Assembly (NCBI RefSeq): GCF_003334815.1
Contig: NZ_QOWO01000004.1
Length of the DNA stretch: 64,000 nucleotides
Strand: one strand, 5' to 3'
Source: Escherichia coli
Lineage (GTDB): Bacteria > Pseudomonadota > Gammaproteobacteria > Enterobacterales > Enterobacteriaceae
In this document: positions 7,782 to 62,212 of the stretch, piece by piece
How positions within the stretch are numbered: the stretch's first letter is position 1
Layout of the letters: each line of letters opens with the position of its first letter
Translations under genes and position numbers: made by a program
The notes under the pieces: generated by a model
The model's input: only the letters and a program-made list of their open reading frames with translations
Database searches by the model: none
Told to the model about the DNA's origin: nothing

Positions 7782-8910
7782 ACTGAACGATCTTCTGACC
7801 ACCCGTGAGCTACAACGCTGGCGATTAATTCTTGGCGAAGCGGCAGAAACGACGCTTTGTGGGCTGGATGACAACGCCCGGCAGATAGACCACGCGCTGG
7901 AATGGCTGTATGGGCGCGATCCTGAACGGCTCCAGCGTGGTGAACGCTCCGGTGGATTAGGTGGCTCAAATCTCACCACCCCTGAGTGGATCAACAGTAT
8001 TCACACGCTGTTTCCGCAACAGGTGATTGAGCGGCTGGAAAGCGATGCCGTACTGCGCTATGGCATTGAAGATGTGGTGACGAATCTCGACGTGCTGGAA
8101 CGTATGCAGCCTTCTGAAAGCCTGCTACGCGCCGTTTTGCATACCAAACATCTGATGAACCCCGAAGTACTGGCTACCGCCCGCCGGATAGTGCGCCAGG
8201 TTGTTGAAGAAATTATGGCTCGACTGGCAAAGGAAGTTCGTCAGGCTTTTTCTGGTGTCCGCGATCGCCGTCGCCGCTCATCTATTCCACTGGCGCGAAA
8301 CTTTGATTTCAAAAGTACTCTACGCGCCAACCTGCAACACTGGCACCCACAACACGGCAAGTTGTATATCGAATCCCCCCGCTTTAACAGCCGCATTAAA
8401 CGCCAAAGCGAACAATGGCAACTGGTCTTACTGGTTGATCAAAGCGGCTCGATGGTCGATTCGGTGATCCACTCTGCGGTGATGGCGGCCTGTTTATGGC
8501 AGTTACCCGGCATTCGTACCCATCTGGTCGCTTTTGACACCAGTGTGGTTGATCTCACGGCAGACGTTGCCGATCCGGTAGAGTTATTAATGAAAGTGCA
8601 ATTAGGCGGCGGAACCAATATCGCCAGTGCCGTGGAGTATGGTCGGCAACTTATTGAACAACCAGCGAAAAGCGTCATTATCCTCGTGAGCGATTTTTAC
8701 GAAGGGGGTTCATCATCATTACTGACGCATCAGGTGAAAAAGTGTGTCCAGAGCGGCATCAAAGTGCTGGGACTGGCAGCGCTCGATAGCACAGCAACAC
8801 CTTGCTATGACCACGATACGGCCCAGGCGCTGGTAAATGTCGGCGCACAAATAGCCGCCATGACACCGGGCGAGCTGGCATCATGGCTTGCGGAGAATCT
8901 TCAGTCATGA
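7774..8910 (+). CDS. yehP: von Willebrand factor A domain protein (378 aa)
   Basis: ATG 7774 overlaps the yehM end by 8 nt; MIDAS-like DQSGS motif (LLVDQSGSM). Confidence 0.8.
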   Translation: MSELNDLLTTRELQRWRLILGEAAETTLCGLDDNARQIDHALEWLYGRDPERLQRGERSGGLGGSNLTTPEWINSIHTLFPQQVIERLESDAVLRYGIEDVVTNLDVLERMQPSESLLRAVLHTKHLMNPEVLATARRIVRQVVEEIMARLAKEVRQAFSGVRDRRRRSSIPLARNFDFKSTLRANLQHWHPQHGKLYIESPRFNSRIKRQSEQWQLVLLVDQSGSMVDSVIHSAVMAACLWQLPGIRTHLVAFDTSVVDLTADVADPVELLMKVQLGGGTNIASAVEYGRQLIEQPAKSVIILVSDFYEGGSSSLLTHQVKKCVQSGIKVLGLAALDSTATPCYDHDTAQALVNVGAQIAAMTPGELASWLAENLQS

Positions 8911-10904
8911 ATTCACTACGTCCGGAATTATTAGAACTGACACCGCAGGCCCTGACGGCGTTAAGCAATGCCGGTTTTGTTAAGCGCAGTCTTAAGGAAC
9001 TGGAAAATGGCAACGTCCCGGAAATCAGCCATGAGAACGGCGCTTTAATCGCCACCTTCAGTGACGGTGTCCGTACCCAGCTGGCGAACGGCCAGGCACT
9101 GAAAGAGGCTCAGTGCAGCTGCGGGGCCAGCGGTATGTGCCGTCATCACGTGATGCTGGTGTTAAGTTATCAACGACTTTGTGCTACCGCCCAGCCTACA
9201 GGAAAAGAAGAGGAATGGGATCCGGCAATCTGGCTGGAAGAACTGGCTACCCTTCCCGATGCCACCCGCAAACGCGCACAGGCGCTGGTCGCTAAAGGCA
9301 TCACCATTGAGTTGTTCTGTGCGCCGGGTGAAATTCCCTCTGCCCGCTTACCGATGAGCGATGTGCGTTTTTATTCCCGCAGCAGTATTCGTTTCGCCCG
9401 TTGTGATTGTATTGAAGGCACACTTTGCGAACATGTCGTACTGGCTGTGCAGGCCTTCGTCGAGGCCAAAACTCAGCAAGCGGAATTTAACCATTTGATC
9501 TGGCAGATGCGCAGCGAACACGTCACATCATCTGACGATCCGTTTGCCAGCGAAGAAGGCAAAACGTGTCGTCAATATGTTCAGCAATTAAGCCAGGCAT
9601 TATGGCTGAGCGGCATCAGCCAGCCGCTTATTCACTACGAGGCCGCTTTCAGCCGCGCGCAGCAGGCGGCGGAACGCTGCAACTGGCGATGGGTGAGTGA
9701 ATCGCTACGGCAACTGCGCGCCAGCGTTGATGCCTTCCACGCCCGCGCAAGCCATTATCATGCCGGAGAATGCTTGTGTCAGCTTGCGGCATTAAACAGT
9801 CGATTAAATTGCGCACACGAAATGGCGCAGCGCGACAGTGTTGGTGAAATTCCTCCCATGCCGTGGCGCACGGTCGTTGGCGCAGGCATTGCCGGAGAAG
9901 CAAAGCTTGATCATCTGCGGCTGGTGTCTTTAGGTATGCGTTGCTGGCAGGATATTGAGCATTATGGTTTACGCATCTGGTTTACCGATCCCGACACCGG
10001 CAGTATTTTGCACCTTTCGCGCAGTTGGCCGCGAAGCGAACAGGAAAACTCACCGGCAGCTACGCGTCGGCTGTTTAGTTTTCAGGCTGGCGCACTGGCG
10101 GGTGGGCAAATTGTTTCACAAGCAGCAAAACGCAGTGCCGATGGCGAGCTGCTGTTAGCTACCCGCAACCGCTTAAGCAGCGTTGTGCCGCTGTCGCCTG
10201 ATGCCTGGCAAATGTTGAGCGCGCCGTTACGCCAGCCGGGCATTGTGGCTTTGCGGGAATATTTACGCCAGCGTCCCCCCGCCTGCATACGGCCTCTTAA
10301 TCAGGTCGATAACTTATTTATTCTGCCGGTCGCTGAGTGTATTTCGCTCGGTTGGGATAGCAGCCGCCAGACGCTGGATGCGCAGGTCATTAGCGGCGAA
10401 GGTGAAGATAATCTGCTGACGTTATCACTGCCAGCCTCAGCCAGCGCGCCTTATGCCGTTGAACGCATGGCGGCGCTTTTGCAACAAACAGAGGACCCCG
10501 TGTGTCTGGTTTCTGGCTTTGTCAGTTTTGTAGAGGGGCAATTGACACTGGAACCACAGGTAATGATGACAAAGACTCGTGCCTGGGCGCTGGACGCTGA
10601 AACTGCGCCTGTGGCACCGCTACCTTCTGCCAGCGTGCCTGTGCCGTCTACTGCTCATCAGTTGCTGATACGCTGCCAGGCGTTACTTATTCAACTGCTC
10701 CATAACGGCTGGCGCTATCAGGAACAAAGTGCTATTGGTCAGGCAGAGTTGCTGGCGAATGACCTCACCGCCGTGGGTTTTTATCGGCTGGCACATGTGT
10801 TGGGACAATTTCGTAATACAGAAAGCGAGGCACGGGTAGAAGCAATGAATAACGTTGTTTTGCTTTGCGAACAATTATTCCCCATGCTTCAGCAACAAGG
10901 ATGA
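8907..10904 (+). CDS. yehQ: SWIM zinc-finger protein (about 665 aa)
   Basis: ATG 8907 overlaps the yehP stop (ATGA); alternative in-frame ATG at 8883. Two C-x-C-x(n)-C-x-H motifs (CSCGASGMCRHH, CDCIEGTLCEH). Confidence 0.7.
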   Translation: MNSLRPELLELTPQALTALSNAGFVKRSLKELENGNVPEISHENGALIATFSDGVRTQLANGQALKEAQCSCGASGMCRHHVMLVLSYQRLCATAQPTGKEEEWDPAIWLEELATLPDATRKRAQALVAKGITIELFCAPGEIPSARLPMSDVRFYSRSSIRFARCDCIEGTLCEHVVLAVQAFVEAKTQQAEFNHLIWQMRSEHVTSSDDPFASEEGKTCRQYVQQLSQALWLSGISQPLIHYEAAFSRAQQAAERCNWRWVSESLRQLRASVDAFHARASHYHAGECLCQLAALNSRLNCAHEMAQRDSVGEIPPMPWRTVVGAGIAGEAKLDHLRLVSLGMRCWQDIEHYGLRIWFTDPDTGSILHLSRSWPRSEQENSPAATRRLFSFQAGALAGGQIVSQAAKRSADGELLLATRNRLSSVVPLSPDAWQMLSAPLRQPGIVALREYLRQRPPACIRPLNQVDNLFILPVAECISLGWDSSRQTLDAQVISGEGEDNLLTLSLPASASAPYAVERMAALLQQTEDPVCLVSGFVSFVEGQLTLEPQVMMTKTRAWALDAETAPVAPLPSASVPVPSTAHQLLIRCQALLIQLLHNGWRYQEQSAIGQAELLANDLTAVGFYRLAHVLGQFRNTESEARVEAMNNVVLLCEQLFPMLQQQG

Positions 10905-11028
10905 AATAGTGCTTTTTACTAAGAGTTCTACTCCAGTTCCGGACTGCTCACGCCACGGTATTAGGCATATCCTATATAGCCCCTGGTGAGAGTCACCAGT
11001 TCCTTGATTAAATAAAATGGAGTTTTAC

Positions 11029-11490
11029 ATGAAGGCTTTCAATAAGCTGTTTTCCCTCGTTGTTGCATCTGTTCTGGTTTTCTCTCTTGCTGGCTGCGGT
11101 GACAAAGAAGAATCGAAGAAATTCAGCGCCAATCTGAACGGCACTGAAATTGCCATTACCTATGTCTACAAAGGTGACAAGGTGCTTAAGCAATCTTCTG
11201 AAACCAAAATTCAATTTGCCTCCATTGGTGCAACCACCAAAGAAGATGCTGCCAAGACACTTGAGCCGTTAAGCGCCAAATACAAAAACATCGCGGGTGT
11301 TGAAGAAAAATTAACCTATACCGATACCTACGCGCAGGAAAACGTGACTATCGATATGGAAAAAGTGGATTTTAAAGCCCTGCAGGGTATTTCAGGAATC
11401 AACGTTTCTGCTGAAGATGCCAAAAAAGGTATCACTATGGCGCAAATGGAACTGGTGATGAAAGCCGCTGGTTTTAAAGAAGTGAAATAA
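11029..11490 (+). CDS. yehR: Lipoprotein (153 aa), signal peptide with LAGC lipobox
   Basis: ORF track 11017..11490 trimmed to the second ATG at 11029. Confidence 0.75.
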   Translation: MKAFNKLFSLVVASVLVFSLAGCGDKEESKKFSANLNGTEIAITYVYKGDKVLKQSSETKIQFASIGATTKEDAAKTLEPLSAKYKNIAGVEEKLTYTDTYAQENVTIDMEKVDFKALQGISGINVSAEDAKKGITMAQMELVMKAAGFKEVK

Positions 11491-11496
11491 TCTGTC

Positions 11497-11521
11497 GGCG
11501 GCCATGTTTCGCATGGCCGCC
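11497..11521. terminator. GC-rich 10-bp hairpin between convergent yehR and yehS; no clear U-tract
   Basis: GGCGGCCATG-TTTCG-CATGGCCGCC read directly. Confidence 0.4.
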
Positions 11522-11530
11522 ATACCCGTC

Positions 11531-61273: not shown

Positions 61274-62212
61274 TCAGTTAAAAGGTTGTAAGTCGACGCG
61301 CGCCATCATTGCGGCCAACTGCGGACGATCGGTAATACCCACATTGCTTTGACTTACCGCCAGGGCTGCAACAGCTGTCGCCAGACGCAGTGTGTGTTCA
61401 CTGGATTCACGCATCAGCAAGCCATAAATCAGGCCACCAACCATAGAATCCCCTGCGCCAACGGTGCTTACGACATCGACTGACGGTGGTTTGGCGATCC
61501 ATTCGCCGGAGGCATTAACCCAAAGCGCGCCTTCGGCACCCAGTGAAATAACAACATGCGCGATGCCTTGTTCACGTAGCGCATGTGCAGCTTCAATCAC
61601 ATCTTTCATTTCAGGCAGTTTACGGCCTGCCCAGATTTCCAGCTCGCGGCGGTTAGGTTTCACCAGCCACGGTGCCGCTTTCAAACCTGCTACTAACGCT
61701 TCACGGCTACTATCAAAGATAATGCAAGGACACTGACTACGCAGGCGAGTCATCCAGTCGGTGAACGCTTCCGGGCTGACGCCTGACGGTAAGCTTCCGC
61801 TGACACAGACCATATCGAACTGACCGAGCCAGCTCAGAGAATCAGTCACAAAGCGTTCCCAGTCGGCGGGGGTGACTTCAAAACCCGAGAAGTTGAAGTC
61901 GGTCACTTCGCCGTCTTTTTCCGTCAGCTTAACGTTAATTCGGGTGCGCCCCTGTACAACCTGGAAACGGTTGGCAATGCCCAGCTCGCTGAACAGTTGC
62001 TGAAAACCATCCTGATTGTCTTTACCCAGGAAGCCGCCAACGGTGACATCAATTCCCAGGTCTTTTAATACTTTGGCCACGTTGATGCCTTTACCCGCCG
62101 CATGCAGACCGGTGGTTTTCACCAGGTTCACTTCGCCGCGTTCAATTTCCGGGCAGAAACCAACAAGGTCATAAGCCGGATTAAGGGTGATAGTAGCAAC
62201 ACGTCTGCTCAT
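61274..62212 (-). CDS. fruK: 1-phosphofructokinase (312 aa)
   Basis: ORF track; synteny. Confidence 0.9.
   Translation of the reverse strand: MSRRVATITLNPAYDLVGFCPEIERGEVNLVKTTGLHAAGKGINVAKVLKDLGIDVTVGGFLGKDNQDGFQQLFSELGIANRFQVVQGRTRINVKLTEKDGEVTDFNFSGFEVTPADWERFVTDSLSWLGQFDMVCVSGSLPSGVSPEAFTDWMTRLRSQCPCIIFDSSREALVAGLKAAPWLVKPNRRELEIWAGRKLPEMKDVIEAAHALREQGIAHVVISLGAEGALWVNASGEWIAKPPSVDVVSTVGAGDSMVGGLIYGLLMRESSEHTLRLATAVAALAVSQSNVGITDRPQLAAMMARVDLQPFN

Follow-up and report, generated by a model that had tools for sequence, protein, structure and literature searches.

The window analysed here, a 64,000-nucleotide stretch of Escherichia coli DNA, covers the yehP-yehQ-yehR / yehS-btsR-btsS region, in which yehR, coding for a conserved lipoprotein of unknown function, lies beside the pyruvate-sensing BtsS/BtsR genes. 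On the + strand, the coding sequence of yehQ, a SWIM zinc finger family protein, occupies positions 8883-10904 (stop codon at 10902-10904), and that of yehR (YehR family lipoprotein, DUF1307) extends over 11029-11490; yehQ is the upstream gene in Escherichia only. The palindrome CTGGTGA-GAG-TCACCAG is found between the two genes at 10983-10999 (+ strand), with its 5′ arm at 10983-10989, the GAG loop at 10990-10992 and the 3′ arm TCACCAG at 10993-10999, and maps to U00096.3 2,211,189-2,211,205 via a published Term-seq coordinate, which puts the yehR ATG at 2,211,235. The first-pass annotation had described it as a 7-bp inverted repeat with a 3-nt spacer about 30 bp upstream of the yehR start, and indeed the sequence is exactly as given, the gap between its end and the yehR ATG at 11029 being 29 nt. 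A T/U-rich tract, TTCCTTGATTAA (11000-11011, + strand), lies directly 3′ of the stem, and the Shine-Dalgarno (SD) region, ATAAAATGGAGTTTTAC, occupies 11012-11028 on the same strand, with GGAG at 11019-11022.

In this strain yehQ is intact, with 673 codons, as opposed to the K-12 MG1655 copy, which is a RefSeq pseudogene with an internal stop. The convergent yehR/yehS intergenic region (11491-11530) contains a shared terminator hairpin with a compensatory stem change relative to K-12: the stem reads GGCGGCCATG/CATGGCCGCC in the window and GGCGGTCATG/CATGACCGCC in K-12, the loop differs as well, and the + strand T-run AATTTTTT after the hairpin is present in K-12 and absent from this strain. In K-12, this hairpin is the mapped yehS 3′ end (Term-seq). 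A terminator-like hairpin with a T-rich tail was also found by the scan in antisense orientation inside yehR (11122-11148, − strand), at a different site from the Rho-dependent antisense 3′ end that Term-seq places in yehR at U00096.3 2,211,443, or about position 11237 of the window. A second DUF1307 (YehR-family) paralogue adjoins yehR in some genomes, being located downstream of yehR in S. enterica (L014, 2131-2661) and between metG and yehR in metagenome contig L022 (769-1227); the gene order of the Salmonella yehR region has been described in the literature.

Taken by itself, the bare palindrome is within chance abundance, as the 64-kb window contains six perfect 7-bp inverted repeats with a 3-nt spacer, against 4.65 ± 1.65 expected from dinucleotide shuffles. 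It stands out from chance because it is conserved. In an alignment of eight distinct Escherichia intergenic sequences, representing E. coli haplotypes, E. albertii, E. whittamii and the cryptic clades, none of the 14 arm positions is variable, compared with 36 of the 108 other intergenic columns (Fisher one-sided p = 0.005), indicating that the arms are under constraint; the sole change in the entire 17-mer affects the central loop base, in E. albertii. At the level of E. coli, 5,363 of 5,426 complete genomes match the 76-nt region at an identity of at least 97.4%, and the only SNPs in the sampled E. coli variants and in 28 metagenomic Escherichia copies are TATCCT/TATTCT and TTCC/TTTC, located in a candidate -10 hexamer and in the T-tract, respectively, and both outside the palindrome arms. 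Arm invariance alone, however, cannot separate an operator from an RNA stem.

We gathered yehR loci from 20-odd genomes and metagenome assemblies. Outside Escherichia, where yehQ is absent, the gene upstream of yehR is metG, which carries a strong terminator of its own, and yehR therefore needs its own promoter within the interval. The only sequences kept between the metG terminator and yehR are an upstream block, a 21-nt spacer, the hexamer TATyCT, a CTGrY motif, a U-rich element and the SD region, and the layout consisting of the block, 21 nt and TATyCT is common to Escherichia, Salmonella, Citrobacter, Superficieibacter and Phytobacter. The spacer between the block and the hexamer is exactly 21 nt long, and its sequence is not conserved. 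A spacer fixed in length and free in sequence corresponds to promoter geometry, and we therefore read the hexamer as a candidate -10 element (10968-10973, + strand; TATCCT in the window, TATTCT in many E. coli strains), in which the alignments show T1, A2, T3 and T6 to be nearly invariant across genera, and the block (ACTCCAGTTCCGGACTG, 10930-10946, + strand; consensus ACTCCAyTTyCGGACTG) as a candidate activator or -35-region element. The block forms an imperfect 5-N6-5 dyad, ACTCC-N6-GGACT, centred at about -42 from the predicted start. That start, placed at 10979-10981 (+ strand) by promoter geometry, 6-8 nt past the candidate -10, would leave 2-4 unpaired nt ahead of the stem, which lies 9 nt downstream of the layout in the window; the CTGrY motif, found 7-9 nt after TATyCT, is the 5′ arm of the palindrome. 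The homologous stem persists in the metG-flanked genera, so that both stem and layout are independent of yehQ.

A generic scan of the yehR upstream region called no canonical sigma-70 promoter, missing the candidate because its -35 hexamer is poor. Neither by gene name nor by coordinates does a yehR start site appear in the supplementary tables of Cappable-seq, SMRT-Cappable-seq, ROSE, the Kim 2012 TSS profiling or the Shigella M90T TSS set, which is why the placing of the stem at the 5′ terminus rests on the predicted -10. We also compared the region with known recognition elements. The block has CTCCAT..GG in common with the BaeR box TTTTTCTCCATDATTGGC, but the match is weak in E. coli, and the distance to the -10 is about 23 nt for the yehR block, as opposed to 9 nt for the authentic mdtA box; we treat the likeness to a BaeR box only as a lead. 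The BtsR/YehT direct repeats, the RcsB box and the CreB tag, as well as the sigma-E, sigma-32 and sigma-54 motifs, do not fit in sequence and spacing. In E. coli ET650 (L028, 1440-1561), an IS1-associated deletion joins IS1 straight to CCCCTGGTGAG; it takes out the entire predicted yehR promoter together with the genes as far back as yehF and leaves the palindrome and yehR in place. In E. coli 2024CK-00616 (L027) IS1 is inserted inside yehR, soon after the start codon.

The SD region is invariant in Escherichia and nearly so in other genera, constituting the longest invariant run of the intergenic alignment. Such conservation far exceeds the needs of an SD sequence. The region includes a small inverted repeat, TAAAA-TGGAG-TTTTA (11012-11031), and an in-frame ATG at 11017 that would give MEFY-MKAF...; in Salmonella and in the Enterobacteriaceae gut isolate MGYG-HGUT-00110, the upstream ATG is closed by TAG or TAA directly before the yehR ATG.

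Comparison of leaders from different lineages bears on what is selected at the palindrome. For each of 14 lineages, we took the 5-mer at the conserved CTG anchor and sought its perfect reverse complement further down the leader. Such a complement is present in 8 of the 14, while shuffling of the downstream leader in 10,000 trials yielded a mean of 0.37 lineages and a maximum of 4, and anchors slid along the leader found a complement in 0-2 lineages. The arms read CTGGTGA/TCACCAG with a 3-nt spacer in Escherichia, CTGGCAT/ATGCCAG with no spacer in MGYG-HGUT-00110, and CTGGTAT/ATACCAG with a 2-nt spacer in the C. amalonaticus-like metagenome contig L030, so that three distinct perfect 7-bp palindromes occupy the same position. 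In other lineages the arms are further apart: CTGGCA/TGCCAG in E. fergusonii (spacer of 17 nt), CTGGT/ACCAG in both C. portucalensis (19 nt) and C. amalonaticus (28 nt), CTGCT/AGCAG in Phytobacter (24 nt) and GCCGA/TCGGC in contig L022 (22 nt). The 3′ arm with its flank, TCACCAGaTTC, is visibly homologous in E. coli, Citrobacter Res13 and C. portucalensis, and the E. coli palindrome thus looks like a minimal version of a stem that encloses extra sequence in its relatives. Since complementarity has outlived changes in both sequence and distance, it argues for an RNA helix and is incompatible with recognition by one dimeric DNA-binding protein. No convincing stem was found at the anchor in Salmonella, Citrobacter FP75 and RIT-PI-d, and the stem is therefore common rather than universal.

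Folding predictions agree with a stable stem-loop formed by these co-varying arms. For a local RNA 36-mer, RNAfold gives the hairpin as minimum-free-energy structure and as centroid, with a predicted dG of -9.3 kcal/mol and a z-score of about -2.5, and neither the A/U-rich spacer nor the SD region is paired in the short transcript predicted here. Whole-leader folding z-scores are modest in most lineages. In a longer RNA, starting or reading through from upstream of the block, the minimum-free-energy fold for K-12 and the window uses alternative pairings, and the hairpin would then be internal. A search of Rfam 15 returned only noise matches (E of at least 0.7) in the window interval 10800-11200, and nothing at the gathering threshold in eight orthologous loci.

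With moderate confidence, we interpret the element as a selected stem-loop positioned at the 5′ end of the yehR mRNA or close to it, which probably stabilises the message. Its two parts differ in strength: that an RNA stem is under selection is rather probable, and that it acts specifically as a stabiliser is plausible but stops short of being probable. We infer the transcription start, the folding in vivo and the effect on stability. The palindrome would be the DNA image of a stem-loop with 7 bp and a 3-nt loop in the yehR 5′ untranslated leader, beginning 2-4 nt into a transcript made from the conserved yehR promoter (block, 21 nt, TATyCT), and selection would target base pairing rather than a protein-recognition sequence. 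A paired 5′ end could hinder RppH and the 5′-end-dependent entry of RNase E, extending the life of the message, and the A/U-rich spacer and the SD sequence would stay single-stranded for ribosome binding. Both RppH and the RNase E 5′ sensor require single-stranded 5′ termini, hence the long-known stabilising effect of 5′ secondary structures, and RppH-dependent decay concerns only a minority of E. coli mRNAs (PMC3997798). The 2-4 unpaired nt predicted here are borderline for 5′-end protection.

It is also conceivable, although fairly unlikely, that the palindrome has no function and is a chance or template-switch inverted repeat, the conservation of which merely reflects the close kinship of Escherichia genomes. 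Template-switch mutation can yield perfect palindromes without selection, and such palindromes are expected several times per 64 kb by chance. Moreover, E. coli-level identity is high throughout the region, several lineages are stemless, and the literature searched contains no experimental phenotype. Against this reading, the arms are significantly less variable than their flanks across Escherichia species (the p = 0.005 given above), and complementarity recurs at a single anchor in 8 of 14 lineages with differing sequences, far above the shuffled controls.

Another reading, which we regard as unlikely, takes the hairpin together with the U-rich tract for a weak intrinsic terminator or a hairpin-dependent pause site in the yehR leader, which would tune or condition the transcripts reaching the coding region, or trim read-through from yehQ. 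The sequence after the palindrome, TTCCTTGATT, is T-rich, and throughout Escherichia the stem has a T-rich tract behind it, better developed in other lineages of the genus (TTTCTT, TTTTCTGAT or TTTTGTGATTTT). Leaders of other genera also contain a U-rich element, with a consensus of about GTTATTTTTT, and in Superficieibacter it lies 3′ of a small hairpin, CGCC-ACTTCA-GGCG GTTATTTTTT; in addition, the predicted stem energy falls in the range of terminators. Nevertheless, the terminator scan makes no call in the window, as the tail TTCCTTGA has just 4 T among the 8 bases that follow the stem, against a criterion of at least 5 of 8, which bears out the earlier remark that no T-run follows: the tail is T-rich, but interrupted. 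In the Term-seq supplementary tables, neither yehQ nor the yehR leader has a 3′ end on the + strand, though that of the nearby yehS is listed, and low yehQ expression could hide one (PMC7815308). Furthermore, the long-range stem of several genera holds the U-rich element within its loop rather than ahead of it, and no alternative anti-terminator pairing is conserved.

A different regulatory role emerges as a lead, rather than a finding, from the upstream block, since its sequence ACTCCAyTTy... and the SD region AAAATGGAGT are reverse complements of each other (10930-10946 versus 11012-11028). The perfect match extends over 6 nt in K-12 and in the window, and reaches 9-11 nt in, among others, E. 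albertii, E. whittamii and several Citrobacter. In an RNA that includes the block, the SD is predicted to pair with it at a probability of about 1.0 in 12 of 16 lineages; the SD side of the pairing is invariant, and S. bongori has two uncompensated disruptions. The block lies upstream of the predicted start, so only read-through transcripts from metG or yehQ would carry it, and the pairing may represent fold-back inhibition of such transcripts, or else the block may be a second binding site for the same protein. In its most elaborate form, this would amount to an undescribed clade-specific cis-regulatory leader, in which the ACTCCATTT...CGGACTG element serves both as a promoter element and as an anti-Shine-Dalgarno sequence and is combined with an invariant SD hairpin and the co-varying 5′ stem; translation would be confined to transcripts from yehR's own promoter, with a regulator acting via the 5-N6-5 dyad. 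We consider this scheme distinctly speculative. Were it true, transcripts running on from metG or yehQ would be silenced by folding back, in the manner of IS10 but at a chromosomal envelope-lipoprotein gene, and a regulator would control the promoter through the dyad at about -42.

The proposal that the palindrome is an operator for a dimeric regulator, put forward in the first-pass annotation, did not withstand the comparison of orthologous leaders, and we regard it as very unlikely. A dimeric repressor bound to the dyad at about +3 to +19 would block initiation or promoter escape. The symmetry is perfect, with 7-bp arms and a 3-bp spacer, the dyad overlaps the predicted start, which is a classic place for a repressor, and the arms are invariant while the spacer centre is free. 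Within the half-sites, TGGT/ACCA is shared with FadR sites (CTGGTACGACCAG) and GTGA/TCAC with CRP sites, and yehR was reported to be up-regulated without cAMP (PMC4512719). At orthologous promoters, however, neither half-site sequence nor spacing is conserved: the arms co-vary and lie anywhere from 0 to 28 nt apart, yet they stay complementary, which is incompatible with one dimeric protein. The spacing is also wrong for FadR, GntR and CRP, all of which we reject on these grounds, as the half-sites are separated by N7 (TGGT-N7-ACCA) instead of the N3 of FadR/GntR-type sites such as fadBA CTGGTACGACCAG, or by N3 instead of the N6 of the CRP consensus.

Nor did searches for the palindrome point to a regulon. 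The only other match in the window, at 62109, has two mismatches and lies inside an ORF. The exact scan of the metagenome collection, which bears on the suggestion that the same palindrome might recur elsewhere, identified 58 stretches, of which 28 are Escherichia yehR leaders and the remaining 30 occur in unrelated contexts in other organisms, each once or twice. A second E. coli locus would recur about as often as the yehR copy, and none does, so no second E. coli locus exists among these occurrences. The literature searched contains no paper linking a regulator to yehR, the searches on yehR regulation returning incidental mentions only, and a sigma-32 site that ChIP-chip had placed near yehR was not reproduced. 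Finally, a role as yehQ terminator, which the first-pass annotation had already disfavoured, is rejected in view of the persistence of the stem in yehQ-less genera with metG upstream, the Term-seq tables and the negative scan.

The outcome is a model of the yehR promoter and leader, comprising candidates for the -10 and for an activator site as well as a selected RNA stem, and the palindrome should not be annotated as a terminator of yehQ. Most likely, the element is an ordinary 5′ UTR stem-loop that leaves the general picture unchanged. Compensatory arm mutants would tell an RNA stem from an operator at yehR.

Several known systems offer points of comparison. FadR (GntR-family) operators, such as that of fadBA (CTGGTACGACCAG), have outer half-sites CTGGT/ACCAG identical to those at yehR in sequence and orientation, but their 5-mers are separated by 3 bp as opposed to 7 at yehR, where the spacing is unconserved in orthologues, and yehR has no evident link to fatty-acid genes. 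In the transposase genes of IS10 and IS50, fold-back inhibition guards against outside transcription. The yehR block ACTCCATTT resembles these systems in being located just upstream of the predicted start and complementary to the ribosome-binding site AAATGGAGT, so that only transcripts from outside would sequester the latter; in contrast to them, yehR is a chromosomal lipoprotein gene, and the candidate pairing involves the block rather than the palindrome and is broken in S. bongori. Intrinsic terminators and leader attenuators resemble yehR in that a G+C-containing hairpin precedes a T-rich stretch within a 5′ leader, whereas the U-tract at yehR is interrupted in this strain, and the leader lacks both a mapped 3′ end and a conserved anti-terminator structure. 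A further group is that of the stabilising 5′-terminal stem-loops, exemplified by the ompA 5′ UTR hairpin and the papA 5′ stem-loop (Emory, Bouvet and Belasco 1992, reviewed in PMC3997798). The yehR stem, at 7 bp, is shorter than that of ompA and its transcription start is a predicted one, and in some relatives, unlike in ompA and papA, the stem encloses most of the leader and forms no local hairpin. In common with both, yehR has a short stable hairpin predicted within a few nt of the mRNA 5′ end, with a single-stranded, A/U-rich spacer between it and the ribosome-binding site, and it is the pairing, not the sequence, that has been conserved.
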